A model generated the notes under the pieces. That model worked only from the letters and a program-made list of their open reading frames with translations, ran no database searches and was not told where the DNA came from. DNA of 64,000 nt. It comes from a bacterium (GTDB lineage: Bacteria > Hydrothermota > 32-111). Position numbers and translations under genes: made by a program. The DNA lies in NCBI GenBank assembly GCA_050239825.1, contig JBFXGO010000001.1:78258-142257 (forward strand). Reading direction: 5' to 3'. Positions 3 through 59,280 of the stretch are shown piece after piece (position 1 is the stretch's first letter; each line of letters begins with the position of its first letter).

Positions 3-2270
3 AGAAAGATAGAGGATTATCCGATTCTTGTAGTTACTACCTCACGATATTCGGATGACGGCTCAAAAATTACACTGCCTGTCGAAGCGGAGTGTCCTGT
101 GAATGAAATTACAGTTGGCCTATTTGACCTTGAGCAGAGCAGGGATTATATTTCAAAACAGCTTATATTTTCGCCATCCGAAAATCTGATAGAGAAAATT
201 TTTCAAAAGACAGAAGGCAATCCTTTCTACATAGAACAGATATCTTTGTATCTTATCGAGAATGAAATCCTTGAAATAAAGAATGATGAGTATTGCCTGA
301 AAAAGGATATTGAAGATATTCCGCAAGGGATAAATGCAATAATCATTGCGAGAATTGACAGGCTAACGAGAGAACTGAAGGAGATGGTGCAGAGCGCCGC
401 AGTGTTGGGCAGAGAGTTTGAAATAGATGTTCTTTCGAAAATGCTTTCGGGAAGGATGGATGAAAAATCCCTTTCTGAAGGCGTCGATGAGAAAATATGG
501 CAACCCCTAAATCAGTTGAAATATATATTCAAGCACAACATGATGAGAGATGCGGCATACAATATGCAGTTGAAAAACAAACTGAAAGAGCTTCATCTTG
601 TAGCGGCGAATGCTCTTGAAAGAATCCACGGAAAGGAGATGGAAAAATATGCGGATATGGCTTATCACTATGAAAAAGGCGAAGTTTTCGACAAAGCCAA
701 ATACTATTATAAAGAAACAGGAATTGAATCCAAAAATAATTTTAGAAACTATGATGCGGAAAAATATCTTCTGGCGGCATTGAAATACTCTGATGACAGG
801 AATGAATATTTTGATCTGAACCTTGCTCTGGGGGAGGTATACTACCAAATGGGGGAATGGGAAAAAACGAAAATTATTTACGAGAATCTTGTTTCCGGCA
901 TGAAAGAAGCGGACGATGATATCAGGAAAGCCAGAACATTTCTTGCCTATGGAGAACTTTTGTTTGAAAGAGGCGAAATAGAGATGTCCAAAGAATCTTT
1001 TAAAAAGGCGGAAGTGATTTTCCAGACCGCTCAAAACAGAGAGGGCATGACAATGGTGCTGATGGGAAGAGCTCAGACATGTTGGAGAGCGGGCGATCTT
1101 GACATCAGCAGGGAGCTGTATCAAAAGGCGCTTGATATGGCTGAAGAGCTCAATAACAGCAAGTTGATAGCTGAAATACTTTTAACCATGGGCAACATCA
1201 ACAAAGACAAGTGTGAATTTAATGAGGCGATGGAGTACTACGAAAAGTCAAAGAAGCTTTGCACGGAGAATAATCATAAAACAGGTCTCTGCGGAGTAAT
1301 AGGCAACATGGGGTTGATAGAATGGATGAAGGGAAATTATGAAAAGGCTATGGATTATTTCAATGAAGAGATGGAGGTGGCAAAAACCATAGGTAGTAAA
1401 TTCGTGCTTAGTTACATATACGGAAATATGGGTTCGGTCTATTTTCACATGAACCTCTTTGACAAGGCGGAAGAGCACTATCTAAAACAGATTGCAATTG
1501 CCGAGGAGCTGGGTGAGAAAAAAAATATCAGGATTGCGCTCAACAATCTCGGCGGAGTATGCGAAATGAGAGGAGATTATGAAAAAGAGCTCGATTATTT
1601 CCAGAAGAGCCTGAAGATAGCGGAGGAGCTGAATGCGAAAATGGGAATAAGGATAGTGTTGAGCAATATAGGAAATGTGTATGGAAAGTGGGGTCAGCAT
1701 GATAAATCTCTGGATTATTTCACAAGAAGCCTGAAGATCGCTGAGGAGCTGGGCGATAAAAGAGGAATTTCCATTTTGAAAATGAATCTTGCATGTTCAT
1801 ACAATCTTCTTGGAGATATTGAAAGGGCGGAAGAGAATATTGATGAAGCATTGAAGATAATGATTGAATACAATCTAAATCCTAATATGGCAAAAGCGCT
1901 TTTAGAAAAATCGAAAATACTCTTTAAAAAAGAAAAGTATGATGAAGCTTTAGTTAAAATTGAAGAGGGGTTAAAAGCTCTGGAAAAAGGTGAAGTGCTC
2001 CTATCGGAGAGTGAAAGAATAGGGCTCATTATTCTGAAGTGTCTCATGATTTCTAAAAGAAACAAGGAAGAGGGGAAAGAAAAACTTTTAGAATTGCTCA
2101 ATGACGCCAAAGAAAAATCGGATATAGGCGATGTGTATAATGCATTGCTTGAAATATCAGGAGACGATTCATACAGGATTAAGGCGATTGAATCTTATGA
2201 GCAGTACTACTCATCCCATCCGGTAAAAGAAATAGAAGACAAAATAAAATCTCTCAGGAGAGAAAAATGA
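3..2270 (+). CDS. 5'-truncated STAND/AAA-type NTPase C-terminal region with long TPR array (probably an adenylate/guanylate cyclase-AAA-TPR protein)
   Basis: Frame is open from base 3, so the gene starts before the window. GNPFYIEQ, IIARIDRL, AAVLGREF and YIFKHNMMRDAAY motifs are typical of AC-AAA-TPR proteins, followed by many TPR-like repeats. Confidence 0.8.
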   Translation, partial: RKIEDYPILVVTTSRYSDDGSKITLPVEAECPVNEITVGLFDLEQSRDYISKQLIFSPSENLIEKIFQKTEGNPFYIEQISLYLIENEILEIKNDEYCLKKDIEDIPQGINAIIIARIDRLTRELKEMVQSAAVLGREFEIDVLSKMLSGRMDEKSLSEGVDEKIWQPLNQLKYIFKHNMMRDAAYNMQLKNKLKELHLVAANALERIHGKEMEKYADMAYHYEKGEVFDKAKYYYKETGIESKNNFRNYDAEKYLLAALKYSDDRNEYFDLNLALGEVYYQMGEWEKTKIIYENLVSGMKEADDDIRKARTFLAYGELLFERGEIEMSKESFKKAEVIFQTAQNREGMTMVLMGRAQTCWRAGDLDISRELYQKALDMAEELNNSKLIAEILLTMGNINKDKCEFNEAMEYYEKSKKLCTENNHKTGLCGVIGNMGLIEWMKGNYEKAMDYFNEEMEVAKTIGSKFVLSYIYGNMGSVYFHMNLFDKAEEHYLKQIAIAEELGEKKNIRIALNNLGGVCEMRGDYEKELDYFQKSLKIAEELNAKMGIRIVLSNIGNVYGKWGQHDKSLDYFTRSLKIAEELGDKRGISILKMNLACSYNLLGDIERAEENIDEALKIMIEYNLNPNMAKALLEKSKILFKKEKYDEALVKIEEGLKALEKGEVLLSESERIGLIILKCLMISKRNKEEGKEKLLELLNDAKEKSDIGDVYNALLEISGDDSYRIKAIESYEQYYSSHPVKEIEDKIKSLRREK

Positions 2271-2782
2271 ACAGAGAGCAGAATTTCCTTCTTACGAGAA
2301 GAAGCACGAGAAAGTATTCTGACAAAGAGATTGAAAAAAAAAAGATTGAAGTTATTTTGAAAGCTGGAATGTATGCTCCGTCAGCCCACAACACTCAGCC
2401 GTGGCATTTCATTGTCATCAGAAATAAAAATCTTATGTGCGAAATATCCAAAGTGCACAGATATGCCGGCATGACAAAGAATGCATCAGCGGTGATACTT
2501 GTATGTGCTGACACTGCAAGGCAGGATGACCCCGGATACTTTTCGCAGGACTGTTCGGCGGCGACAGAGAATATACTCCTTTCTGCACACATTGAGGGCA
2601 TAGGGGCATGCTGGATTGGCATTTACCCGGTAAAGGAAAGGATGGAGAAGATTTCCGCACTTCTAAAACTCAAAAAAAATCTCGCTCCTTTCTCACTGAT
2701 TGCGCTGGGTTATCCGGGAGAAACAATCGCAGGCAAAGACCCCGAAAGGTATGATAAGAAAAAGATAGAATTCGTAGATTGA
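2267..2782 (+). CDS. Nitroreductase family protein
   Basis: RRSTRKY, APSAHNTQPWHF, ATENILLSA and GIGACWIG motifs. Confidence 0.92.
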   Translation: MNREQNFLLTRRSTRKYSDKEIEKKKIEVILKAGMYAPSAHNTQPWHFIVIRNKNLMCEISKVHRYAGMTKNASAVILVCADTARQDDPGYFSQDCSAATENILLSAHIEGIGACWIGIYPVKERMEKISALLKLKKNLAPFSLIALGYPGETIAGKDPERYDKKKIEFVD

Positions 2783-2823
2783 AATAAAATCGGGGCGACC
2801 TGTTTTACTATCAAGCAAAAAAC

Positions 2824-3642
2824 TTAAAGAAGAAACATGCTGAATATTATTATCACAAGGGAAATATACTAATGAGGACTCAGACGCTCTTTGAACATGA
2901 AGACGGATACTGTAGCAGTGACAGAAGGGCTTGAACAGAATATCGGAGATGCCAGTGATATGGGAATTTTAACTGCCGAATAATAAAAAAGCATAAGACC
3001 CGAGGATACAAGAACGGCAAATCCAACTGCACGACTTCCGCATTCTTTTCTCTTCTTACTGCTATTATAAATAAGGAGTCAAAAGAGAAAAAGAAAGAAT
3101 TGAGTTAAAGAAAGAGAGTTCGTTAGGTTTGACTTCTAACAGCATGACTTTCGATAGAAATGCCCAGATTCCCAAGAGTAGAGTAGCGGCAAGAGTCAGA
3201 GCGAGCCACAGATACCTCTTTTTTTTCTCCTCCGCGGACCTATTGCCATCAAATGAAATTCCTATGCTTTCTGAAATTATAAGAAGCACTGCGATTCCCT
3301 GAACCACTGAAATCTTTTCTTTCAGAACAATTATTCCCAAAACAACACAGAAAATTGATGATGCAGAGAGTATCGCCGTAAGTATGGATACATCTCCATG
3401 AAGAAACGCAATTATGCAGAGCAGATAGGCGAGAATTGAAACAACCTGAACGGCAGAAAGTTTCAAAAGAAGATATTTATCCGGAAATTCGCCCCTCATG
3501 ACATAAAAAAAGAGTCCATTGAGAATCAGTTGAATGATTCCGGAGATAACCATTAGACGCCCGGTTTTAGGCGCATCACTGCGTATTTTGAAAAGGCATC
3601 TGCAATACCTATAAACAATGCGGCAAGTAAGGCAAAAATCAT
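2824..3642 (-). pseudogene. EamA/DMT-family transporter pseudogene
   Basis: Three hydrophobic segments in different frames: MIFALLAALFIGIADAFSK (from 3642), ORF 3553-3065 with GIIVLKEKIS, then AVGFAVLVSSGLMLFYY...VFMFKERLSPH*YISLVIIIFSMFLL*. There are frameshifts and an in-frame TAG. Confidence 0.8.
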
Positions 3643-3739
3643 TACTTCAGTATCTTGATAAAAATCAAATTGTAAAGATGTGCATATTGACAACCGATGT
3701 CTAATCATTATTATTTTAGATAATAAAAAAGAGGAGATT

Positions 3740-6700
3740 ATGATTGGAAAATTTTTTTTCGCGGACATATCAAATTTCACAAAGACAACTGAAATGTTTA
3801 TCAAAAAGAGTCAATACGGTCAGGAGGTTATAAGGGATATCGTGGACTCGGTATTTTCCGGCGCAATTCAGAAAATATATGAGAAAGACGGGTATGTAAT
3901 TCTATTTGCAGGCGACGGACTCCTATTCTATCTCTCTCCCGAGTTTTCAAATTCCGTCAGAAGCGAGTTTGAAAAAAACATAGATAAGTTCAACAGAAAA
4001 ATGTCAACCGAGCTGGGCATAAAAATAGAAGAGATGACTGAAAATCTATTTCCTCATATCGTAAAAGCAGAAAAAAGAGAGTTTATCTACTTTCATCCCC
4101 AGATATCTTCTTTCACCTATGAGGATATAAAAGAGAGTATCAATCTCGATTTTCCTCCCGTAATAGGGGAGATGAGAAAAAAAAATTCTCTTGGCGAGCT
4201 GAGGGAGATACCTGCAGGTTTCATAAATATTGCAGAGGAGAAGAAACCCGAGGATTTGAGAGAGTTTTTCGAGCAGATGATTTCAGAGGCAGACAGAGAA
4301 CAGGTTTATGTCAATAAAATAGAATGGGCGGATAAGGGATGGATGGTTCTTGTTGCCTGTGGGATGCCTGTCTCCGTGGAGAATGCTCCGATGCGTCTTC
4401 TTTACTATATGAATTACCTGCTCAAAAAGGCTGAACAACTTGGAATAGAGATTAAAATCGGATGCACCCTGAAGAAGGGATATGCAGGAATAATAGGCGG
4501 AGAAGAGAGATGGGAATACACATTCATTGGGGGAAACATAAATCTGGCGGCAAGAATTGCAGTCAAGGGGGAGAGTATGAAGATATTCTCCGACAAGAGT
4601 TTTGCGGATGCAGTATCGTCATCCGCTCTGTTTGACAAATACGGCGATTTTACTTTCAAAGGAATAAATGAACCGGTCGAAGTCATGTGTTTCAAAGAGT
4701 TTTCTGATTCATCAAAAAAGGATTTGTTTGTCGGCAGGCAGAAAGAGACCGCAGAGGCGATCTCTGCTCTCTCGAAAGATTCAACATGTCTTTTGGTCTC
4801 CGGAGAGGGGGGAATCGGAAAAACCCATTTTGTAAATTCAGTTTTGAAAAGTATTCCGTTTTCAACCATAAAGACTATCTGTTCACAGAGAAAAGAGCCA
4901 TTCTTTCTTGCGATGAAAATTCTTTTGGAAATGGATAAAGCAAGAGACAGCATAGATTCCTATGAGTCCGTCTTTCTAAGATTATCAAAAATGCAAACAG
5001 TCAAAGAGAGATTCAAGCATCTTTTAAATTCATTCACCAAAAGTGTTTTGATAATTATTGACGATTCACAATATATTGATTCTGAGTCCCTAGAGCTTTT
5101 GAATTGGGTCTTTTTTGAGAGACCGGAGCATATCAGGTTCATATTTATAGGAAGGGAAATGAAGAATCTTTCATTCATAAAATCAAAGCTCTCTAAATTT
5201 GCTTATACTGAAATAAATTTGATTGGTTTCAATGAGGAAGGCATTTCGGATTTTCTCTTCAAAAGCACAATGCTAAAGCCAAAACCTGAGGATGTGCGCG
5301 AACTTTCCCGCATTTCTGGAGGAAATCCGCTCTATCTAAACCAGATTATCTCTTTCATGCTAAAGGAAAACAACATCGAATCAAAGGGAGGATATCTTAA
5401 TTTCAAATCAAGAATTCAGGATTTTCCATATTCTCTTAAAGAGCTCATTCTGGTGAAGTTCGACAGATTCCCCGCTGTCACCAAGAATTTTGTGGAAACA
5501 GGCTCTGTGATAGGGGAAGAATTCGTAAACTCAATAGCTTTGAATTCAACGGGATCGGAAGACAGCATAGAGAATGCAGTGACGCCTGCGGTGGAAAATA
5601 AAATTCTAAGCAGAAAATACGAAACAGTCTCAATGTTTTATCATTCGATAGTCAAACAGACAATATTTGACAGAATGCTCAAAAAAAGAATTGATGAAAT
5701 CTGCGTCAAAGTGGGTGATGAGATGGCAAGGAGCAGTGATAATCCGTTTATGCTTCTTCAGGCTGGGGATTTTTACGCTTCAGCCGGACACAGCAGGGCA
5801 TTCGATATGTTCATCTCCGCGGCGAGGCTTTTTAAGAATGACAGGAACTCAATTTATGCTTCTCACTCTCTTAATAAAGCTCTCTCACAGAGTGTGCCTC
5901 CGCAAAAACAGCTTGAAGCGGTCATTCTGTACCCGGAAATTTCCAGACAGCATGTCGATAAAGAGTTCTTAGAAAACGCATTTTCAGCTCTTATCAGAGT
6001 AAAAGAAAAGCTTAGCAAAGATGATGCATCCGTTTATGAGTCCATAGCATACGGTTTTTTGAATATTCTAAGGGAAAACAAAAAGACAGAGCATGTACTG
6101 CGCCTTTATAAAGAGAAGTGCGGAGAGACATTCGGATACTGCATGCTCAAGGGAAGATTGGAGAAGGAAAAAAAGTCGATAGCCGGAGCCTTGAAGGTTT
6201 ATAAGGATATCAAAAAGAGATTTAAGATGAATTTTAACGAAGAATTTGAATATTATCTTGCAGTTGCATCATTTTATTTTTTTAATACAACCGACAGGAA
6301 AAATCTCGCAGTTAATCTGAAGAAACTCGAACTTGCAAGCAGAAAATTAAAGGATTCTGCAAAGAAAGCTGCTTACTTTGATTTTATGACATCCGTTTTC
6401 CTGCACACCAATGAAATTAAAAAGGCAGAGGCGTTCGCAGATAAGAATCTTCTGTTTGCGAAAAAAAGCGGTCAGACAGACCTTTTGACATCTCTCTACA
6501 ACACATTCGCAATAATCAACTCAAACAAATTCTTCAAAACGAAGAACCGCAAGTATGAAAAACTCTCATTGAAGTATCATAAAAAAATCTACGATATTTA
6601 CAAAAAGGATATGAACCTCTCAGCTCTTCCGCTGATCACGACTAATTTGGGAATGGCATATCTAATGGCCGGTGACGCAAAAAAGAATTTTCACTACCTT

Positions 6701-20084: not shown

Positions 20085-21115
20085 GATGGCAGGCGTAGCG
20101 TCGGCTCGCACACTCCGCTTCGCCGCTTTATCAAGATGGGATAGCGGAGCAAGGAGAGAACCACTTGATGGGCGTCTGCGCGGAGCGTCCTCGCCGACTT
20201 GTAGCTTTCACTTTCAATAAGTTAATTAATTGAATGAATCTTCTAAAACCATTGGCGCGGGTGTAATGTGCGCGAACGTCCATGATAGAAAGAACGGGTT
20301 GCACCAGAAGTTTTAGAAGATTACTGAAAAGACTAAATATTAATCAACTCCCCGTATTAAGCTCATGGCACACGGCACACGGCTCAGGGCTGATTTAGTG
20401 GCTGCACGCGGGCATAGCATCGGCTCGCACACTCCGCTTCGCCGCTATATCAAGATGGGATAGCGGAGCAAGGGGAGAACCACTTGATGGGCGTCTGCGC
20501 GGAGCGTCCTCGCCGACTTGTAGCTTTCACTTTCAATAAGTTATTTAATTGATTGAATCTTCTAAAACCATTGGCGCGGGTGTAATGTGCGCGAACGTCC
20601 ATGATAGAGGTATCGGGTTGCACCAGAAGTTTTAGAAGATTACTGTAAAGAATAAATATTAATCAGCTCCACGTATTGTATTTAAACTCGCAACTCGTAA
20701 CCCGTAACTCGAAACTGAATTATCTTTTAATATTGATGACTGCACTGGAATTTTTCCTCGGAACTGTAAAGGCAAGTCATTTACTCATCTCTCCGTATTT
20801 TGCTCATGGCACATGGCTCAAGGCTCAGGGCTGATTTTGGGGGCTGCTGGCAGGCGTGCGTCAGCTCACACACTCCGCTTCGCCGCTTTATCAAGATGGG
20901 ATAGCGGAGCAAGGGGTCGCCCACTTGATGGGCGTCTTCGCGGAGCGTCCTCGCCGACTTGTAGCTTTCACTTTCAATAAGAACCTGTTGTGGGGACACA
21001 CCGAAGGAATGTCCCCAAACATTGAATAGCAGTGCGGAGATGCACTGGAATTTTTCCTCGGAACTGTAAAGCCAAGTCATTTACTTAATTCTCCGTATTA
21101 TGTTTAAACTCGTAT
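20085..21115. repeat. Non-coding mosaic array 1 of hairpin modules with three copies of the 99-nt core
   Basis: Core copies at 20100-20198, 20419-20517 and 20860-20958. 13-bp inverted-repeat module at 20237-20322 and 20556-20641. GGGGACA/TGTCCCC hairpin near 20990. Heptamer tracts at 20361, 20685 and 20802. Confidence 0.95.
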
Positions 21116-49591: not shown

Positions 49592-50080
49592 TTACTTTAT
49601 TGCAATTACACCGAAATCAAATGATTCAGAACAGGTTTTGTTGTATCCGTAGTTGTCCTTTCCGTGAAGAAAGACTCTCAGAGTGACTCCTTCCCAATCA
49701 TTTTCAACCATTTTATCCCAAACTTCATCAGGCAGAGGAAAAGGAAGATTTTCAATAGTGGCTGTACCTACAACTATAGAATCTCCGACTGACTTGTTGG
49801 CGGGTAAAAGAATATTCATGGACATAAAAGTGTCGGTTGGGGAATCATATATAATAATGCCATTTTTGATATATTGATAAGTTGATCTGTAAATGACTGT
49901 CTCAACTGCCGCATTATTCTGAATTTCCAACTCGTCAATAATTACAAAAGAAGTGTCTGAACCGACAGCATAGCCATTATTACTTAACCATGTAACAGAA
50001 AAATCCGGATTTGGTGTTATTGTCGAACATGATGCGACAAATAATGCCAAAAGAACGATAATTAACATTCTGAATTTCAT
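49592..50080 (-). CDS. Lipoprotein of unknown function (divergent fourth member of the tandem set)
   Basis: AGGAGG RBS; lipobox VASC. Confidence 0.75.
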   Translation of the reverse strand: MKFRMLIIVLLALFVASCSTITPNPDFSVTWLSNNGYAVGSDTSFVIIDELEIQNNAAVETVIYRSTYQYIKNGIIIYDSPTDTFMSMNILLPANKSVGDSIVVGTATIENLPFPLPDEVWDKMVENDWEGVTLRVFLHGKDNYGYNKTCSESFDFGVIAIK

Positions 50081-50139
50081 CAAAACCTCCTTAAATTTAA
50101 TATAAATATCATAATATCAAAATCTTTAAAAGTCAATAT

Positions 50140-50667
50140 CTACGGTTTGACCAGTAAAAACGGTTTCCTAACAGGCAGAGACGAATACTCATCTCCCATC
50201 TCATCCGTGTATCTGACCTGAACTTCAAGAATGCCTCTTCCGACATTGTCATGCACTCCGTCGGAGACATCAATGTCATATGCTGTGTTTTCGGCTACAA
50301 TGATTTCAAGTGAAGGCTGGATATCAATTGTGTCCGACTCAGTTATCTCGAGGGGGATTTGAAATTCATATGAACCATCCTCAATCTCATTATTATCCAC
50401 TATGAGAGAGTAGTCAATCCTGTAAATGTATGCATTCTTCTCCTTGATTTCAGTTGCTTCTGTGGAAAGGTAGTAGGTGTCTGCTCCGATATCCATCCAA
50501 TTGTAATTTTCCCACCCGTCAGCATCAGTATCAGGAACGGAGAATGTTATTTCAAACGTATCTTCAATAATTTTGACTATGGGTTGGTCTGTGTAAATAG
50601 GAACGGGTCCTATAGAACATGAAGCAAGGAAGAGAACTATTGTTGAAAGCAAATATATTTTTTTCAT
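50140..50667 (-). CDS. Acidic lipoprotein, tandem paralog
   Basis: LASC; DQPIVKI; DIDVSDGVHDNVGRG; ends LVKP. Confidence 0.8.
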   Translation of the reverse strand: MKKIYLLSTIVLFLASCSIGPVPIYTDQPIVKIIEDTFEITFSVPDTDADGWENYNWMDIGADTYYLSTEATEIKEKNAYIYRIDYSLIVDNNEIEDGSYEFQIPLEITESDTIDIQPSLEIIVAENTAYDIDVSDGVHDNVGRGILEVQVRYTDEMGDEYSSLPVRKPFLLVKP

Positions 50668-50676
50668 TATTTCCTC

Positions 50677-51192
50677 CTATGGTTTTACGGCAATGACATC
50701 TCTATAAAAAGAGCGCGAAGTGAAGGTGACTCCGTTGTTGTCATAGAATTTCACATTTATTTCGGCAATGCCGTAAGCCACTCCGTCTTCAGCCCCGTCC
50801 TCTTCATCAAGGTCATTCGCATAATGTCCGTTCAAAAAGAAGAGAATCTTAAGAGTATCTTCAGTATTAGCCTTCAATTCCTGAGGAGCTGTGAATATTT
50901 TTGTAAAATGCTCTCTCGTGTTGCCGTTATAATCGCTTATGCTCCAAGATACTTCTGTGATAAATGCGTCAATGCCCTCTGTCTCAGTAAATATAACATC
51001 AAGATTTATTGAATCCTCATCTTCCCAGTTCCAAATGTCATCCTCTCCCGGATCAATAGAGAATTCAAGCGTGTCGGAAAGAGAAATCTCAATCACCGGT
51101 TGATAGTATTTTATTGCTGTCGGAGACATGTAGCATGAAGTGAGGATAATGATAAATAGAATTACTGTGAATATTTTTTTCATTTTAGCCAC
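50677..51192 (-). CDS. Acidic lipoprotein, tandem paralog
   Basis: LTSC; YQPVIEI; DLDEEDGAEDGVAYG; ends AVKP. Confidence 0.8.
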   Translation of the reverse strand: MAKMKKIFTVILFIIILTSCYMSPTAIKYYQPVIEISLSDTLEFSIDPGEDDIWNWEDEDSINLDVIFTETEGIDAFITEVSWSISDYNGNTREHFTKIFTAPQELKANTEDTLKILFFLNGHYANDLDEEDGAEDGVAYGIAEINVKFYDNNGVTFTSRSFYRDVIAVKP

Positions 51193-51196
51193 CTCT

Positions 51197-51706
51197 CTAC
51201 GGTTTGATTACCTTTACAGGCAGATAGAAGGGAAGGGATTCAAATTTATTTGCCCTCTCATCATAGTAAACAATCTTAATGATGATTACTCCGCTTCCGA
51301 CATTGTCCTGAATACCGTCTGAAATGTCTATGTCGTAAGCATCGTGCTCCTCTATCACAAGCGGTATTTCAATTGAATCAGATGCGCTCTTTTTGAGCTC
51401 GAGCGGAGAGAGAAGTACAATGTTGCCTCCATTGACATTGCCGTCCAGTTCAGTGACAATGTTCCATTCAATGTCTGTAATGTATGCGGCGACATCCTTT
51501 ATCTCCTTAAGAACTATTGAAAATTTCAGCGAATCTACTCCATCGCCGGCCCACCAGCCGTCAGGCTCAAGGTCATCAACATAGAATGACTGTTCCGTTG
51601 TGTCAGCTTCGATTTTCACCACCGGCTGATATGTATAGACATATACAGGCCCCATGGTGCATGAAGCAAGAAGAAGTGTCAAAACAACAATACATATAAA
51701 TTTCAT
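51197..51706 (-). CDS. Acidic lipoprotein, tandem paralog
   Basis: LASC; YQPVVKI; DIDISDGIQDNVGSG; ends VIKP. Confidence 0.8.
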   Translation of the reverse strand: MKFICIVVLTLLLASCTMGPVYVYTYQPVVKIEADTTEQSFYVDDLEPDGWWAGDGVDSLKFSIVLKEIKDVAAYITDIEWNIVTELDGNVNGGNIVLLSPLELKKSASDSIEIPLVIEEHDAYDIDISDGIQDNVGSGVIIIKIVYYDERANKFESLPFYLPVKVIKP

Positions 51707-51822: not shown

Positions 51823-52158
51823 ATGATAAAAAATTTTATTAAGGAGAGTGATTTTGGACTTACAATATGCGACAAAGAGGGCGTAATAATTTATATGAAT
51901 GACAAGGCTAAAATAATATTTAGAAATTATGGAGATGATCTTATAGGAAAGTCGCTCTTTGACTGCCATCCCGAACCAGCAAAAAGCAAACTCAGGGAGA
52001 TGCTTAAAAGCGAGACAAAAAATGTCTATACAATAGAGAAGAACGGGATAAAGAAAATGATTTATCAGATGCCTCTCTATGAAAGCGGAGCATACGCCGG
52101 GTTCTATGAACTTTCCCTCGAAATCCCTATGAACATGCCCCATTTCAAAAGAGACTGA
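51823..52158 (+). CDS. Stand-alone PAS domain protein
   Basis: TICDKEGVIIYMN, LIGKSLFDCHP, NVYTIEKNG; AAGGAG RBS. Confidence 0.85.
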   Translation: MIKNFIKESDFGLTICDKEGVIIYMNDKAKIIFRNYGDDLIGKSLFDCHPEPAKSKLREMLKSETKNVYTIEKNGIKKMIYQMPLYESGAYAGFYELSLEIPMNMPHFKRD

Positions 52159-52196
52159 CATAAATCCATCAGCTTAATATCTCACTATTTCAGTTA

Positions 52197-54500
52197 CATT
52201 GTACAGAGAAGCGCTGTGGACAGGCTTCTCATTCGGAACTGTAAAGGCAAAATCTTTCTCAACCGTGTCACCCTGAACGCCTCTATGGTTATGACTATCG
52301 TGAAGGGTCTATCAGTTTATTGTTAATTGAAGTTTGTTTATAGGCTACTGACGGGTGTAGCGTCGGCTCACACACTCCGCTTCGCCGCTTAATCAAGATG
52401 GGTTAGCGTAGCAAGGAGACAACCATTTGATGGGCGTCTTCGCGGAGCGTCCTCGCCGACTTTAAGCTTTCGTATATCAATAAGTTAATTAATTGTTTGT
52501 TGCAGTGGGGACACACCGAAGGAATGTCCCCACATTGGCGAGGGCGTAATGGACGCGAGCGCACATGATAGACGCCTTGGGCTGCACCAGAACTTTGTGA
52601 AGATTACTGTAAATACAAAATCTTACTCAGCAGTGTCACCCTGAACGCCTCTATGGTTATGACTATCGTGAAGGGTCTATCATTTGATTGATTATTGATA
52701 ATTGAAGATTGAGCTGGGGCTGCACGCGGGCGTAGCGTCGGCTCACACACTCCGCTTCGCCGCTTTATCAAGATGGGATAGCGGAGCAAGGAGACAACCA
52801 CTTGATGGGCGTCTGCGCGGAGCGTCCTCGCCGACTTGCAGCTTTCGTGTATCAATAAGTTAATTAATTGTTTGTTGCAGTGGGGACACACCGAAGGAAT
52901 GTCCCCACATTGGCGAGGGCGTAATGGACGCGAGCGTCCATGATAGAAAGAATGGGTTGTACCAGAAGTTTTAGAAGATTACTGAAAATACAAAATCTTA
53001 TTCAACAGTGTCACCCTGAACTACGCTTTAGTTATGACTATCGTGAAGGGTCTATCATTTGATTGATTATTGATAATTGAAGATTGAACTGGGGCTGCAC
53101 GCGGGCATAGCGTCGGCTCGCACACTCCGCTTCGCCGCTTAATCAAGATGGGATAGCGGAGCAAGGGGTCGCCCACTTGATGGGCGTCTTCGCGGAGCGT
53201 CCTCGCCGACTTGTAGCTTTCGTGTATCAATAAGTTAATTAATTGTTTGTTGCAGTGGGGACACACCGAAGGAATGTCCCCACATTGGCGAGGGTGTAAT
53301 GTGCGCGAGCGCACATGATAGACGCCTTGGGCTGCACCAGAACTTTGTGAAGATTACTGTAAATACAAAATCTTACTCAGCGGTGTCACCCTGAACGCCT
53401 CTATGGTTATGACTATCGTGAAGGGTCTATCAGTTGATTGATTATTGATAATTGAAGATTGAGCTGGGGCTGCTGGCGGGCTTAGCGTCGGCTCACACAC
53501 TCCGCTTCGCCGCTTTATCAAGATGGGTTAGCGGAGCAAGGGGTCGCCCACTTGATGGGCGTCTTCGCGGAGCGTCCTCGCCGACTTTAAGCTTTCGTGT
53601 ATCAATAAGTTAATTAATTGATTGTCCTCATGAGAAGCATTGTACAGAGAAGCGCTGTGGACAGGCTTCTCATTCGGAACTGTAAAGACAAAATCTTACT
53701 CAACTGTGTCACCCGGAATTATTCAGTAGTTATGACTCAACAATGTCACCCTGAACGCCTCTATGGTTATGACTATCGTGAAGGGTCTATCAGTTGATTG
53801 ATTATTGATAATTGAAGATTGAGCTGGGGCTGCACGCGGGCATAGCGTCGGCTCACACACTCCGCTTCGCCGCTTTATCAAGATGGGTTAGCGGAGCAAG
53901 GGGTCGCCCACTTGATGGGCGTCTTCGCGGAGCGTCCTCGCCGACTTTAAGCTTTCGTATATCAATAAGTTATTTAATTGATTGAATCTTCACAAAGCAT
54001 TGGCTTGGGAGAAATGTGCGCTAACGCACATGATAGAGGTATCGGGTTGCACCAGAACTTTGTGAAGATTACTGTAAAGACAAAATCTTACTCAGCAGTG
54101 TCACCCTGAACGCCTCTATGGTTATGACTATCGTGAAGGGTCTATCATTTGATTGATTATTGATAATTGAAGATTGAGCTGGGGCTGCACGCGGGCGTAG
54201 CGTCGGCTCACACACTCCGCTTCGCCGCTTTATCAAGATGGGATAGCGGAGCAAGGAGACAACCACTTGATGGGCGTCTGCGCGGAGCGTCCTCGCCGAC
54301 TTGCAGCTTTCGTGTATCAATAAGTTAATTAATTGTTTGTTGCAGTGGGGACACACCGAAGGAATGTCCCCACATTGGCGAGGGCGTAATGGACGCGAGC
54401 GTCCATGATAGAAAGAATGGGTTGTACCAGAAGTTTTAGAAGATTACTGAAAAGAATAAATCTTGCTCAGCTCCCCGTATTTTGCTCACGGCTCATGACT
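52197..54500. repeat. Non-coding mosaic array 2: six tandem units of about 355-375 bp
   Basis: 99-nt core at 52362, 52737, 53112, 53487, 53847 and 54202 (spacing 375, 375, 375, 360, 355), interleaved with TGTCACCCTGAAC...GAAGGGTCT, GGGGACA/TGTCCCC and CATTG...ACTGWAAA modules. Confidence 0.97.
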
Positions 54501-54595
54501 GACTTGGTTGGCAACAGCGTAACCGCTCATCATCCCTTGACTATTATTTTTTTATACATACAATATATGTGTTATTTTAATTATAGGAGGATTTT

Positions 54596-55663
54596 ATGCA
54601 TAAAAAATTGTTCATTCCCGGGCCCACAGAGGTCGTCAAAGAGGTCCGCGATGCGATGGCCTGTGAGATGATCGGGCACAGGATGAAGGAGTTTACTGAG
54701 CTCTACAATGCTGTTGAGCCGAAACTCCAGCAGGCTCTCTACACAAAGAACAGAGTTCTCATGGTCACTGCTTCTGCAACAGGATGTATGGAGGCGGTTG
54801 TGAGAAACTTCTCAAAGAAGAAGATTTTGTCGGGAATGTGCGGTGCCTTTTCTGACAGATGGTATGACATTGCAGTAGGCAACGGCAAACCGGCAGGACA
54901 GTTGAAAGTCGAATGGGGAAAAGCAATAAAACCTGAAATGGTTGATGATGCTTTAAAGACAGGAGAGTACGATGTCTTTACTCTTGTACACAATGAGACA
55001 TCAACCGGAGTCAAGAACCCCATAGAGGAGATTTCAGAAGTTATGAAGAAGTATCCTGATGTGATTTTTGCTGTTGACGCTGTCTCTTCTCTCACAGGGT
55101 ACAAGATTGATGTTGATGCTTTGGGTATAGACATCATTCTCGCAGGCGTTCAGAAGTGCTTCGCCCTTCCCCCCGGACTTGCAGTTATGTCTGTCTCTCC
55201 GAAATCTATTGAGAGGGCAAAGACTGTTGCAAACAGGGGCTACTACTTTGATGTAATAGATATGCTCAAGTATGATGAAAAGGGCCAGACTCCCTCCACA
55301 CCGTCGGTTTCCCACATTAATGCTCTTAATGTGCAGATGGACAGGATGTTGAAAGAGGGCTTGGATAACAGGTTCGCGCGCCACAAGAAGATGGCAGACA
55401 TGGTATTTGACTGGGCGAAGAGCAAGGGCATAGAACTCTTCCCTGAAAAAGGCTATGAGTCATGGACTGTGGTTACTATGAAGAACAACAGGAATTTCAA
55501 TATTTCCGAACTCAACAAGGAGCTTGGAAAGAGGGGAAAGACTTTGTCAAACGGGTACGGCAAATTAAAAGAGGTGACATTCAGAATAGCCGCGATGGGA
55601 GACCTCATGCCCGCAGACATACACGAACTCCTTAATGATGTCAATGACATCCTTAAAATATAG
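54596..55663 (+). CDS. Class V PLP aminotransferase (serine-pyruvate/alanine-glyoxylate/phosphoserine type)
   Basis: LFIPGPT, VHNETSTG, VDAVSS, GVQKCFALPPG. Confidence 0.93.
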   Translation: MHKKLFIPGPTEVVKEVRDAMACEMIGHRMKEFTELYNAVEPKLQQALYTKNRVLMVTASATGCMEAVVRNFSKKKILSGMCGAFSDRWYDIAVGNGKPAGQLKVEWGKAIKPEMVDDALKTGEYDVFTLVHNETSTGVKNPIEEISEVMKKYPDVIFAVDAVSSLTGYKIDVDALGIDIILAGVQKCFALPPGLAVMSVSPKSIERAKTVANRGYYFDVIDMLKYDEKGQTPSTPSVSHINALNVQMDRMLKEGLDNRFARHKKMADMVFDWAKSKGIELFPEKGYESWTVVTMKNNRNFNISELNKELGKRGKTLSNGYGKLKEVTFRIAAMGDLMPADIHELLNDVNDILKI

Positions 55664-56580: not shown

Positions 56581-59280
56581 ATGAAGAAGGAAATCTTCGG
56601 ATTTCTTGCAGGTAAATATCTGAAGCAGAGAATCATTGATTCTCTGCTTCTTTTTTTATCGCACTCTCTTGTGATTTGTGGGTTATCAGCATTCTTATAT
56701 AATCTTCTCTTCATGAACCGCACACTTTTTGTGGTTTTTCTTGCGGTTGCATTTGTTTTTGATTTTTACAAGGTTTTTCTCTTGTTTTTCAGGGAGTATG
56801 AGAGCATAAAGGACATAAACAGAATCAATCCGAAGATGAGGAATTTGATCCTTGCCGCCTATGAAGAAAAACTGCGCGGCAAAGAGTTTGACCTTCAGAG
56901 GGAGCTTGATAAATCGAATGTAAATGATTTTAACTGCATCTGCCTTGAAAAGAGAGTGAAGATAATGAGAATTCTGGCTTTGACGATAATTCAATTTTTA
57001 CTGCTTATTTTGCTCTTTCCACTACATTTTTCAAATGCCGCCGGGTTGACCGAGAAAAGAGCGGTAGTGAGCATAGAAGAGAATAAAATTATTGTTAAAG
57101 GATATAATCTTGGCTCCATAACAGGAGATTTCTTTATTGAGGATTTGTATGGCGCGCAAAAGTTTGACGAATCAAAAAAATACCCTTCAGTTTCGCTTCT
57201 CTTCTTCAAAGGTCCGAGGGTAATCAGCAACAAAATAAAGTTCGGGCTTTTAAGCAGAATGACTGTCGATTCTTTGATTACTCTTGTTCAGCCTCATCCA
57301 TATCAAAAGAGAGATGGTTATACTGAAAATTCCACAATTGTTTATATTCCCGAATATGCAGATGTAAAATCAACTGCTTATGCTTTCGAAAACACAAGGA
57401 CTTTCTTCACACAAGAAAGATTTGAGAATGACACAATTTTGAAAATACAGGGAACATCCGATTCACTCACCCTTTTGCTGATAAATGACGCCGCTCCGGC
57501 TGTAAAAATACTTGTTGACAGTGAGAGCATCAGGAACAGAGATATAGTTCTTCTTCCCTGTGCTTACGCAGATGATTATGAAGTAAAGAGAGTCGGAGTT
57601 ATAATTAAGACAGAGGCGGATTCAATAACCTTCTTTGTTGACAGCCCGAATGAATCCATCTCCTTCTTTGAAATCAATCTGTCCAATATAGCCGGTAACG
57701 AGGGCTGGATAAAGGCATTCGCCAGCGATAACAATCCATTCAGAAATCAGACATCCTATTCACAGGAACTGCGTTTCAGTAAAAAGCTTGATGTCATTGA
57801 ACTGCTTGAAGAGATTGAAGCCAATGAAGTATTCTCCGGATTTTCCGAGATGACCGAAAGGATGACTGATGAGCTGAGCGAGAGGAGAATGGAGATTGAA
57901 AAAAAGAGCATAGAGGAGACGATCGATAAATACAGTGAGAATCTGAAGGATGTGAGCGAAGCCCTAAAAGAACTTGAACAATCATTGCAGGATGCATCAC
58001 GAAAGAGTCTGCCCGAAGAAATCATGAAACAGATGTATGAAATAAAAAAAGAGATTGACAAAATAGATGAAGAGGTTCTCTCGAAAATAATAGAGAAGGT
58101 TGATAAAATAGAGAAGTCCGAAATGAATCGTGAAGCGGCAATGGAGATGATGAAGAGAGATTCAAAGATGATTGAAGAGTCATTGAAGCAGCTGCAGAAA
58201 ATGCTTGAAACTCTGAACAAACTCAGTGAATTGAAGAATTTTCAAGAGAGAATTGAAAACATGGAAAAGATGATGGAAAACGAAAACAATAAACAGAAAG
58301 ATGTGACGGATGAACTGGGGAAAGAAAAGGAGAGGGCTGAAGAATCCGAAAATCTAAAAGAGTGGACAGAAGATTTGGATGAAGCAGAGAGTTTATCCAA
58401 GGCGGCAGAAGAGGATTCAAAAAAGAAAAGCAGTGTGAAGGAAAAACTTGAGAAGATAAAAAAAGAGGCGCAGGAGAAGATGAATTCCCTATCGGGAAAT
58501 CAAAAGTATGACAAGGATCAGGTCATTCTCACACTTCTTGCTCTTAACGAGATGATCACAGAGAAAAAATCGGCTCTCGGCGTATATGCATCAGTTTTAA
58601 ATTTTGCGCATGCGGAAAATGACCCTAAAAATCCTCTTTTTCTCCTTATACAGCGAGGCAGAATGATTGTTGAGGAAGCCAACTCCTCTGTTGACGACAT
58701 AATAAATTATAATTTCTTTATAATATCGCACCTTTTGAAGAAAATGCCCCCATCCGGAGGAGGAATGTCCATGGAGCAGATGATGGATGCGCTCTCCTCT
58801 CTCAGTGAAGAGCAAAAGTCATTGTCTGAAACATTGTGGAATATGTTCGATTCACAGAATATGGGTTCAGAGATGATGAACGAGATTTCAAGGTATCAGA
58901 AAGAGATAGCCCGGAAGCTGAAGGAGCTTGGAGAAAAGAGCGGAGACGGAGGAGGGATGTCACAGCTCGGAGACTCCCTTGCAGATGTCGCCGAAAAGAT
59001 AGAAAAAAATGAAATCAATGAAGATATTCTGAAAAAGCAGGACAGAATTTTAAACAAGATGCTTAAGATGACAAAAGCTCTATACAAAGAGGGAATAACA
59101 GAGAAGAGGGAGTCAAAAACCGGAAAGGAGTATGCAGAACCTGTGAGGCTTGCAGTGCCTGAGGACTATGGGTTTAAAAAGTCATCTTTTGAAAAAATGC
59201 TCAAAAAGTTTTTAACTGAATATAGAGACGAGAGCATTGAGTTTATCATAAAGAAATATTACATGGAGCTTTTAAGATGA
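56581..59280 (+). CDS. Membrane protein with long coiled-coil region (DUF4175-like architecture)
   Basis: N-terminal TM helices; DAAPAV...ADDYEV...FASDNN; E/K/Q-rich coiled coils; ends KKYYMELL. Confidence 0.6.
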   Translation: MKKEIFGFLAGKYLKQRIIDSLLLFLSHSLVICGLSAFLYNLLFMNRTLFVVFLAVAFVFDFYKVFLLFFREYESIKDINRINPKMRNLILAAYEEKLRGKEFDLQRELDKSNVNDFNCICLEKRVKIMRILALTIIQFLLLILLFPLHFSNAAGLTEKRAVVSIEENKIIVKGYNLGSITGDFFIEDLYGAQKFDESKKYPSVSLLFFKGPRVISNKIKFGLLSRMTVDSLITLVQPHPYQKRDGYTENSTIVYIPEYADVKSTAYAFENTRTFFTQERFENDTILKIQGTSDSLTLLLINDAAPAVKILVDSESIRNRDIVLLPCAYADDYEVKRVGVIIKTEADSITFFVDSPNESISFFEINLSNIAGNEGWIKAFASDNNPFRNQTSYSQELRFSKKLDVIELLEEIEANEVFSGFSEMTERMTDELSERRMEIEKKSIEETIDKYSENLKDVSEALKELEQSLQDASRKSLPEEIMKQMYEIKKEIDKIDEEVLSKIIEKVDKIEKSEMNREAAMEMMKRDSKMIEESLKQLQKMLETLNKLSELKNFQERIENMEKMMENENNKQKDVTDELGKEKERAEESENLKEWTEDLDEAESLSKAAEEDSKKKSSVKEKLEKIKKEAQEKMNSLSGNQKYDKDQVILTLLALNEMITEKKSALGVYASVLNFAHAENDPKNPLFLLIQRGRMIVEEANSSVDDIINYNFFIISHLLKKMPPSGGGMSMEQMMDALSSLSEEQKSLSETLWNMFDSQNMGSEMMNEISRYQKEIARKLKELGEKSGDGGGMSQLGDSLADVAEKIEKNEINEDILKKQDRILNKMLKMTKALYKEGITEKRESKTGKEYAEPVRLAVPEDYGFKKSSFEKMLKKFLTEYRDESIEFIIKKYYMELLR

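Follow-up and report, generated by a model that had tools for sequence, protein, structure and literature searches.

The window analysed here is the whole stretch of 64,000 nt at C50:78258-142257, on contig C50 of a 2.115-Mb genome in 67 contigs (G000); G001 and G002 denote the genomes of two sister species in the same genus. Between an open reading frame (ORF) with a PAS domain and a class-V aminotransferase gene, the window carries a tandem array of six long units built from modules that we call T, A, G, B, and C. Module borders were taken from five profiles, which were cut from unit 2 and then iterated with nhmmer across the whole G000 genome. In window coordinates, the locus contains the following features:

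51823..52158 (+): upstream flank, ORF of 111 aa with a PAS domain (PF08448 PAS_4, E = 8.9e-07; PAS_9, E = 2.2e-06)
52192..52248 (+): module C, truncated at its 5′ side (profile positions 6-62), at the 5′ edge of the array (nhmmer E = 1.7e-16)
52260..52311 (+): first copy of module T (nhmmer E = 1.8e-18; structure from alifold)
52357..52461 (+): first copy of module A, with a 5′ GTAG-CGTC tag (nhmmer E = 4.9e-33)
52500-52532 and 52535-52594 (+): modules G and B of unit 1 (nhmmer E = 7.6e-12 and 3.5e-16)
52628..52969 (+): unit 2, with T at 52628-52679, A at 52732-52836, G at 52875-52907, and B at 52910-52969 (nhmmer)
53003..53344 (+): unit 3, with T at 53003-53054, A at 53108-53211, G at 53250-53282, and B at 53285-53344 (nhmmer)
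53378..53689 (+): unit 4, with T at 53378-53429, A at 53483-53586, and C at 53628-53689 in place of G and B (nhmmer)
53701..54059 (+): unit 5, with a partial T′ at 53701-53737, T at 53738-53789, A at 53843-53946, and B at 54000-54059, lacking G (nhmmer)
54093..54434 (+): unit 6, with T at 54093-54144, A at 54197-54301, G at 54340-54372, and B at 54375-54434 (nhmmer)
54436..54529 (+): 3′ end of the array, with a tail (GCTCCCCGTATT at 54470-54481), two heptamers (~54484-54497), and a degenerate start of A (~54514-54529, judged by eye and unscored)
54537..54564 (+): TTGACT-16-TACAAT, resembling a promoter of the downstream gene and beginning a few bases past the end of the array (consensus scan, 10/12 matches)
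54596..55663 (+): downstream flank, class-V aminotransferase gene (PF00266, E = 1.9e-23)

The first module begins 33 nt after the stop codon of the PAS ORF, and the aminotransferase is 92-93% identical in both sister species. Tandem Repeats Finder detects one array, spanning 52238-54471 (period 375, 6.1 copies, 83% matches, 4% indels, score 2967). With nhmmer every module copy in the array is on the + strand, in the order C′ T A G B / T A G B / T A G B / T A C / T′ T A B / T A G B, and the A-to-A spacings, corrected for the start of the model, are 375, 375, 375, 360, and 355. An initial annotation of this DNA, made from the letters alone, had described six co-oriented units with the same periods between PAS and aminotransferase genes; Tandem Repeats Finder, nhmmer, and Pfam reproduce this description, the profiles return the identical module order, and the T, G, and A sequences that it quoted are found as quoted. 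The core module A that it proposed is present as well, but is 105 nt long by profile rather than 99 nt, and the heptamers that it noted at the 3′ end are real and form a sixth recurring module.

Module A folds as a compound hairpin, in which GTCGGC/GCCGAC makes up the outer stem and CTCCGC/GCGGAG the middle one; a third stem follows, and the arm at the apex is ATCAAGATGG/CCACTTGAT. The tip can be exchanged: apart from the standard form, 5 of 65 distinct copies have the G hairpin inside A, and 3 of 65 have a short form. Nearly all copies of A (101 of 104) are preceded by NTAG (GTAG in 71, ATAG in 20, and TTAG in 10), followed by CGTC; and T, a module of ~45 nt, starts with TGTC in 35 of 41 copies, so that the GTAG before A and the TGTC at the start of T that had been noticed in the window hold for most of the copies. 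The T hairpin consists of an ACCCT/AGGGT stem, tandem G-A mismatches, and then AC/GU (alifold prediction). Module G is a hairpin of 27 nt plus a tag, with an 8-bp stem (TGGGGACA...TGTCCCCA); the tags before it (n = 46) include GCAG (20), GTTG (13), and GTTA (7), and fall only partly within published degenerate forms. The heptamer module comprises three heptamers (GGCACAY GGCWCAY GGCTCAA) and has 29 copies, 23 of which lie within arrays or ~140 bp of them, all co-oriented. The linkers between modules are conserved. The arrays also share a 3′ tail, which is found within 250 bp after 27 of the 48 arrays described below; its profile gives 30 co-oriented hits just past arrays, and only one of its 113 hits lies before an array. 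Several arrays end within the first 14-27 nt of a copy of A, and the window array, with its tail, two heptamers, and what resembles a degenerate A start, shows this 3′ end that is usual for the family.

These modules belong to a family that extends across G000, with a common grammar and polarity of its arrays. The profiles detect 121 copies of A, 71 of T, 65 of B, 48 of G, and 21 of C, which group in 58 clusters (37.4 kb, or 1.77% of G000); 48 of the clusters contain at least two modules and are called arrays here. The window array is the longest of the 48; a smaller second array of the same family lies in the window at 20095..21017 (+), with the order A B A B A G (nhmmer). In 44 of the 48 arrays the strand is uniform, with modules head to tail. 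A blastn search with one unit gives 131 matches in G000, and the true copy number is higher than counted, because many arrays touch contig ends. An exact 17-nt pattern from A, searched across genome contigs, is found in at least 96 stretches, almost all of them chance matches. The copies of A in G000 are on average 93% alike (94.8% within arrays and 93.0% between arrays), and for 23.5 of 81 copies the closest relative is found in the same array, compared with 2.2 expected. These are strong signs that arrays grew locally by duplication.

Could the 2.3-kb block be an artefact of assembly, with dispersed copies mis-joined? In such a case there would be no tandem block of this size, and three facts would fit: units 2 and 6, although not adjacent, are 100% identical across 369 nt; short-read contigs break at 52239 and none runs across the array; and many contig ends of G000 fall within arrays of the family. 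Short-read joints such as 52250 to 54466 are indistinguishable from junctions of other arrays of the family. We find this explanation hardly credible: unique sequence borders the array on either side within its 142-kb contig, its units differ from one another in an ordered way, the same grammar recurs in 47 other arrays, and G001 has modules directly upstream of the same aminotransferase gene. In addition, in contigs from the public raw data, the array bins sum to a depth of 82-3834, compared with 22 for the unique flank, which is consistent with a high-copy repeat. The exact number and order of units in the window array are given as assembled.

The family causes many contig breaks in assemblies of the genus and can mislead binning, as illustrated by a repeat-rich 30-kb contig within a metagenome-assembled genome (MAG) of Bacillota name. 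In this MAG (Vulcanibacillus sp.) all seven module hits (7/7) are on that single contig (JBFXJF010000028.1), where neighbouring proteins are only 25-44% identical to those of G000; the contig is probably mis-binned and derives from a relative of the G000 organism.

The distribution of the family is narrow. By blastn, the unit is found in G000 and both other species of the genus, and in 0 of the 38 other sampled genomes (3/41 in total); a covariance model of A finds the same three among 151 genomes of the phylum (1 of 76 genera). We compared six array sites of G000 with the orthologous sites in G001 and G002. The site of the array at C50:24528-25655 is empty in both, with the flanks directly adjacent, and in G000 a 1.16-kb insert (C50:24496-25655) sits exactly between the upstream stop codon and an intrinsic terminator. 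The sites of C3:55308-57143 and C9:57616 are empty in G002 (spacers of 99 bp and ~49 bp, respectively), and that of C27:41118 is empty in G001 (257-bp spacer). At the site of C35:20533, G001 has 1.37 kb of sequence in which a fragment of the A start is accompanied by another module, a run of Ns, and a Y1 gene (297 aa) that carries inverted repeats of its own. At the window site, the G001 contig starts 254 bp upstream of the aminotransferase gene; repeats are present there, because heptamers and an A-start fragment precede the gene, while the G002 contig stops inside the aminotransferase gene. In the other site comparisons the flanks are on different contigs. The spacers upstream of the aminotransferase gene in two other genomes, G006 (97 bp) and G003 (130 bp), are not true empty sites, because upstream synteny is not kept in other genera.

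The family is therefore mobile, being present at a site in one species and absent from it in another. Between species, the DNA flanking the four empty sites is 72-81% alike, compared with 93% for the copies of A within G000, so the family spread or was homogenised since the species split; with the local signal described above, it spread by both dispersal and local duplication. Runs of N mask parts of some loci used in this work, L137 (~1894-3335) and G001:C91:27256-27370 among them; one such run in G001 covers the inverted repeat on the left as well as the sequence that separates the A fragment from the Y1 gene.

Arrays have a preferred direction relative to their surroundings, as judged with crude gene calls based on longest ORFs. 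Between genes of the same direction, 16 arrays are co-oriented with the genes and 1 is anti-oriented; 10 lie between divergent genes, 8 between convergent genes, and 13 at contig edges. For the 16 co-oriented arrays the median distance is 104 nt from the upstream stop codon to the array, and 220 nt from the array to the next start codon. The window array was wrongly counted among the divergent cases, since these gene calls favour an antisense ORF of 126 aa over the PAS ORF of 111 aa. Array direction matches the sign of the flanking GC skew in 39 of 46 cases and the majority gene strand in 37 of 46, and skew and gene strand disagree at only 4 arrays. Strict head-to-tail polarity together with this bias would agree with an enzyme working on a single strand of DNA at the replication fork, a mode of action known for IS200/IS605 relatives according to the part of PMC6006769 that we draw on; selection on the transcribed orientation would fit the same facts. 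A consensus scan found no promoter- or terminator-like site within the window array, no promoter-like site before any unit, and no terminator-like site from the PAS stop codon to the array. The array at C3:55308-57143 follows a terminator, and its right end is a copy of A cut at about nt 27, which abuts the −35 box of the next gene; both this array and the window array end a few bases short of the promoter site of the next gene.

Some of these facts would suit a structured RNA. The initial annotation had offered, as one of two options, a polycistronic array whose transcript is processed into units; in the form considered here, a + strand transcript would be processed into functional RNAs of ~375 nt or of module size. 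The co-orientation with neighbouring genes (16 vs 1) and the lack of a terminator-like site between the PAS gene and the array agree with this, and the array at C50:24528 should be co-transcribed, because it lies between a stop codon and its terminator. In an alignment of A (65 copies, including those of the sister species), 99% of the paired cells are standard pairs, and 3 of 20 pairs changed on both sides, against 0.9 in shuffles, with 1 of 500 shuffles scoring as high; module C has 26 G-U and 3 A-C cells on the + strand. The covariation evidence for A is nevertheless thin, because most pairs never vary, and the copies, being ~93% identical, hold little real covariation; the covariance model suggested earlier for this module found relatives within the genus, and the covariation signal is weak. 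Across modules, the counts of G-U and A-C cells show no consistent strand asymmetry, and the two strands fold equally well: the 376-nt unit folded as single-stranded DNA gives z = −3.0 for the + strand and −2.9 for the − strand, with 0 of 100 shuffles as stable.

At the gathering score, Rfam finds 4 tRNAs in the whole window and nothing in the array; no family matches the array even at E ≤ 10, a threshold that lets through four hits at chance level (11-12.5 bits, where the cut-offs are 39-100). Neither a tRNA nor a tmRNA is predicted in the array by ARAGORN. Besides having no promoter-like site in or before its units, the array belongs to a family whose copy number, module shuffling, truncated ends, and presence/absence are typical of mobile repeats, and one member (C3:55308-57143) sits after a terminator. 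We therefore consider an array of processed RNAs quite improbable, and this option of the earlier proposal lacks direct support. A protein-coding array was also rejected: the largest internal ORFs, of 95-97 aa on the minus strand, occur in only 3 of the 6 units and have no Pfam match.

The second option of the initial annotation was a large family of mosaic repeats that a nuclease or transposase maintains in trans, and we identified a candidate partner. G000 has four PF01797 (Y1/HUH) genes, in loci at C5:4299-5154, C14:63633-64523, and on C56 and C18, each closely enclosed by a pair of inverted repeats (25-36 nt, 94-100% complementary). The gene at C5:4333-5109 has a terminal inverted repeat of 33 nt, and this repeat, of one RAYT-like Y1 gene, is itself a module of the arrays, which we call R; to find the end of a transposase gene among the modules is new here. 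Its core (TAGGGACGGTGGTT) occurs 52 times in G000 at ≤2 mismatches. The subtype of the C5 gene has 17 copies, two of which flank the gene; 13 of the 15 others lie ≤200 bp from modules, and 12 of these 13 are co-oriented with them (binomial p = 6.5e-19, with module clusters covering 2.8% of the genome). With a looser 14-nt core (≤2 mismatches), R is found 50-159 nt before the first scored module in 7 arrays, next to unique DNA, and inside 5 further arrays, after a copy of A cut at about nt 35. In all 13 array-associated copies (13/13), one and the same pre-A segment (GGGGCTGCACGCGGGC) comes directly after R, with A or its start next, and on a stray contig of another record both R copies also precede a pre-A plus A segment. 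The repeat of the transposase and the arrays are thus physically linked. The search for transposase genes next to the repeats, which had been proposed as a check, gave a divided answer: R of a Y1 gene lies next to arrays, and no A, T, G, B, or C lies beside the Y1 genes.

The two Y1 products that we translated, of 259 aa (C5) and 273 aa, have an N-terminal Y1 domain (PF01797, E = 3.1e-11 and 2.9e-12) and match the NCBIfam model REP_Tyr_transpos over its whole length at 73 bits (C5) and 56.6 bits, both under the cut-off of 80. The motifs HYH and YIHNNP, which we take to be the catalytic motifs of the Y1 protein, are visible in the translations. Both proteins have a weak C-terminal helix-turn-helix (HTH) match (HTH_23, E = 2.9e-05 and 4.3e-04; HTH_28, E = 6.7e-03), below the Pfam cut-offs; and phmmer with the C5 transposase against PDB sequences gives nothing at E ≤ 0.01. 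The C5-type gene has an orthologue in G002 that is 75% identical and carries the same repeat, and one in G001 that is 61% identical and carries another repeat subtype; in all three species the gene lies just past the 3′ end of a tRNA gene. In G000 it is also ~1.5 kb from a 16S rRNA gene. G001 has 5 copies of the repeat away from the gene, all of its own subtype, and 2 of them abut a pre-A or A-start segment. Such repeat ends have moved DNA in G000, as a MITE-like element (miniature inverted-repeat transposable element) of 215 bp, bounded by the repeat of the C14 gene, is present in three copies that are 95-96% identical and one diverged copy, with unrelated flanks (C14:36253-36467, C28:13894-14108, C47:6390-6605, and C41:22134-22347).

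A second family of repeat ends (TGGGGACGGTGCTT followed by GACATCTTGACATTT or similar) has ~12 copies in G000, often at contig ends; its sites include C9:56433, C13:69388, C18:7619, and C54:4210, and, at contig ends, C10:178, C21:173, C28:113, and C67:106. A closely similar repeat flanks the 297-aa Y1 gene of G001 (C91:27420-28313).

The association of R with the arrays could also arise in a passive, satellite-like mosaic, which would spread only by homologous recombination, gene conversion, and slippage, R being an unrelated element with a preference for array hairpins. Consistent with this, only 12 of the 48 arrays have R and the window array has none, the R copies of G002 are mostly away from modules, and the signs of local duplication and homogenisation are strong; within arrays, moreover, R follows a copy of A cut at about nt 35, which resembles an insertion into A or a break in it. 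Simple insertion of R is a poor fit, however, because there is no matching 3′ remainder of A, and the same pre-A and A follow R in 13 of 13 copies in G000 and in both copies on the stray contig. Recombination alone also fails to explain new arrays at unique sites between stop codon and terminator, and the R subtype differs between G000 and G001 in step with their own genes. We consider the passive mosaic unlikely.

Among known Y1 transposases, the G000 genes are most readily compared with TIRYT. In the parts of the two papers used here, a TIRtron is a tyrosine transposase (TIRYT) gene between inverted repeats, which make up repeat families as well (Di Nocera et al., 2013, PMC3733652), and TIRYT is equated with TnpA-Y1 subclass 2.1, which has a C-terminal HTH_23, HTH_28, or DnaA_C domain and no REP-like sequences nearby (Quentin et al., 2018, PMC6006769). 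The G000 genes share the Y1/HUH domain, the C-terminal HTH (a weak match), and the bracketing inverted repeats of 25-36 nt. In addition, the head of R, (T/A)GGGACGG, resembles the GGGGWSAS motif given in the portion of PMC3733652 consulted, which it matches at 6-7 of 8 positions (AGGGACGG/GGGGACGG), and an arm of the G hairpin (GGGGACAC) matches at 8 of 8. As in TIRYT families, R copies are scattered over G000 and partly clustered. By their predicted features, then, the Y1 genes of G000 look like TIRYT in each respect that we compared. The difference is that R belongs, as one module among several, to a much larger mosaic made of long hairpins, in arrays of up to 2.3 kb, whereas the published families, as far as the consulted part of the source goes, consist of the inverted repeat alone.

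The arrays themselves resemble repetitive extragenic palindromes (REPs), their bacterial interspersed mosaic elements (BIMEs), and the REPIN-RAYT system in being high-copy intergenic hairpins with 5′ tags that group in mosaic clusters, share recurring linkers, and lie for the most part downstream of coding regions; A and T also have the unpaired GTAG or CGTC/TGTC tag at the end of a stem that is found in REPs. BIMEs are REPs in alternating orientation with conserved linker motifs between them; the family in G000 shares the conserved linkers but does not alternate. As in REPIN-RAYT systems, a Y1 gene has a family member at its ends. Compared with a REPtron, in which the genome's REPs flank the RAYT gene, the C5 gene gives a divided picture, with R on both sides and also in or next to 12 arrays, and no other module beside it; in contrast to REPIN-RAYT systems, the gene is flanked by R only (A, T, G, B, and C lie beside none of the four genes), and there are four paralogous genes instead of one. 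The core hairpin here has 105 nt, compared with 20-40 nt for a REP unit in the excerpted text of PMC3733652, and only G is within that range; according to the same text, REPs occur mostly as inverted pairs and rarely head to tail, whereas 44 of the 48 arrays here are head to tail. The earlier remark that known REPs are much shorter was correct, the array units being ~10 times longer than a classical REP.

Similar to the neisserial intergenic mosaic elements (NIMEs), the arrays are intergenic and assembled from a limited set of modules (50-150 bp in NIMEs), and T is TGTC-tagged. NIME modules are delimited by inverted 20-bp copies of dRS3; no such delimiter is found in the G000 family, whose modules are long hairpins themselves. 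In the part of PMC3733652 used, dRS3 is a CGTC-tagged REP that forms large clusters. Compared by architecture alone, BOX elements are alike in that they do not code for protein, form structures, and are composed of modules, the internal ones varying in number and keeping a fixed direction. The architecture of BOX in Streptococcus pneumoniae is boxA-boxB(n)-boxC; a BOX element has ~100-300 bp and one type of repeated module, whereas the arrays here have five to seven types and reach 2.3 kb. We know of no transposase linked to BOX. In the literature on WOR-3/Stahlbacteria repeats and on mosaic repeat families we found no description of the family; the WOR-3 part was covered by titles and abstracts, none of which deals with repeats.

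Three other kinds of array were tried and rejected. ToxI-like type III toxin-antitoxin loci have tandem repeats of ~36 nt beside an endoribonuclease toxin gene; here the period is 375 nt, the neighbours are PAS and aminotransferase genes, and there are 48 arrays at unrelated sites. In a CRISPR array the spacers would be unique, and here every segment between hairpins is itself repeated genome-wide. Integron attC sites end in RYYYAAC ... GTTRRRY and surround variable cassettes; A ends in GTAGCGTCGGC ... GCCGACT and the "cassettes" are a few fixed sequences (no search for an integrase was made).

We conclude that the family is very probably a non-coding mosaic repeat, mobile and specific to its lineage, of the kind to which REP, BIME, NIME, and BOX belong. 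The suggestion of a novel system was too strong, since the many genomic copies indicate an element of the REP/BIME/MITE type; that of a large mosaic family with a trans-acting nuclease or transposase fits the ~120 copies of A in 48 arrays, their presence/absence between species, and the identity of R with the repeat of a Y1 (HUH) gene. Many copies in random orientation, together with a lack of transcription, had been named as favouring an ordinary repeat: the copies are indeed many, but their orientation is far from random.

More specifically, we lean towards a mobile REP/BIME-like mosaic that would be seeded or moved by a TIRYT Y1 enzyme, amplified by recombination or slippage, and placed by selection. 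Modules T, A, G, B, C, the heptamers, and R are joined head to tail in one orientation, and their hairpins would form in single-stranded DNA. A domesticated-looking TIRYT (TnpA-Y1 subclass 2.1), the product of C5:4333-5109, may recognise and nick these structures, and thereby seed or move blocks of modules into intergenic DNA. The arrays would then grow, shrink, and homogenise through unequal recombination or replication slippage between units; and selection would keep them only between the stop codon or terminator of one gene and the promoter of the next, in the orientation of the neighbouring genes and the leading strand. Taken by itself, the part in which a TIRYT-type Y1 enzyme seeds or moves the repeat, with unequal recombination or slippage for local amplification, is finely balanced and leans slightly to the doubtful side. 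An effect on the host is possible, e.g., a REP-like stabilisation of the 3′ end of the upstream mRNA.

Several points weigh against the enzymatic part of this proposal. The window array is one of 36 arrays (of 48) that have no R copy; modules A, T, G, B, and C are absent from the flanks of all four Y1 genes; and in G002 only 1 of 6 R copies away from the gene adjoins a known module. R is not the exact boundary of insertion at C50:24528, because the insert begins 32 nt before R. The Y1 gene family alone does not predict the repeats, because 13 of 14 genomes in the taxonomic family carry it (1-19 matches each) and the repeats are specific to the genus. The comparisons of sites and settings have weaknesses of their own: the resolved sites are biased towards empty ones, because sister sites that hold arrays break contigs; the crude gene calls misread the upstream gene of the window array; and skew and gene strand are so correlated (r = 0.88) that replication and transcription are inseparable as causes of the orientation bias.

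To our knowledge, no substrate population or role of TIRYT enzymes is known beyond their own inverted repeats. That a TIRYT would be the partner of a large repeat population, cutting and joining long compound hairpins in single-stranded DNA and so building shuffled head-to-tail arrays of fixed orientation in 3′ untranslated DNA or ahead of promoters, seems rather doubtful to us; if true, an uncultured phylum would hold a host-element partnership that resembles REPIN-RAYT but is built in a new way, and its arrays could serve in addition as 3′ structures of transcripts. REP/RAYT, in which hairpin repeats are paired with domesticated Y1 transposases, is a model of long-term coexistence of selfish DNA and its host, and G000 offers a concrete, testable pairing: a TIRYT gene at a conserved site beside a tRNA gene in three species, with an end sequence that is embedded in a 37-kb population of hairpin modules.

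Two other regions of the window deserve mention. An ORF of 899 aa at 56581-59280 (+) has no Pfam family at E ≤ 0.001, and a pattern search of genome contigs gave one partial relative, without useful context. At 49592-51706 (−) there are four tandem ORFs of 163-175 aa without a Pfam match, whose N-termini are lipoprotein-like (a signal peptide ending in Cys); three of the four are paralogues, sharing 30-37% identity.

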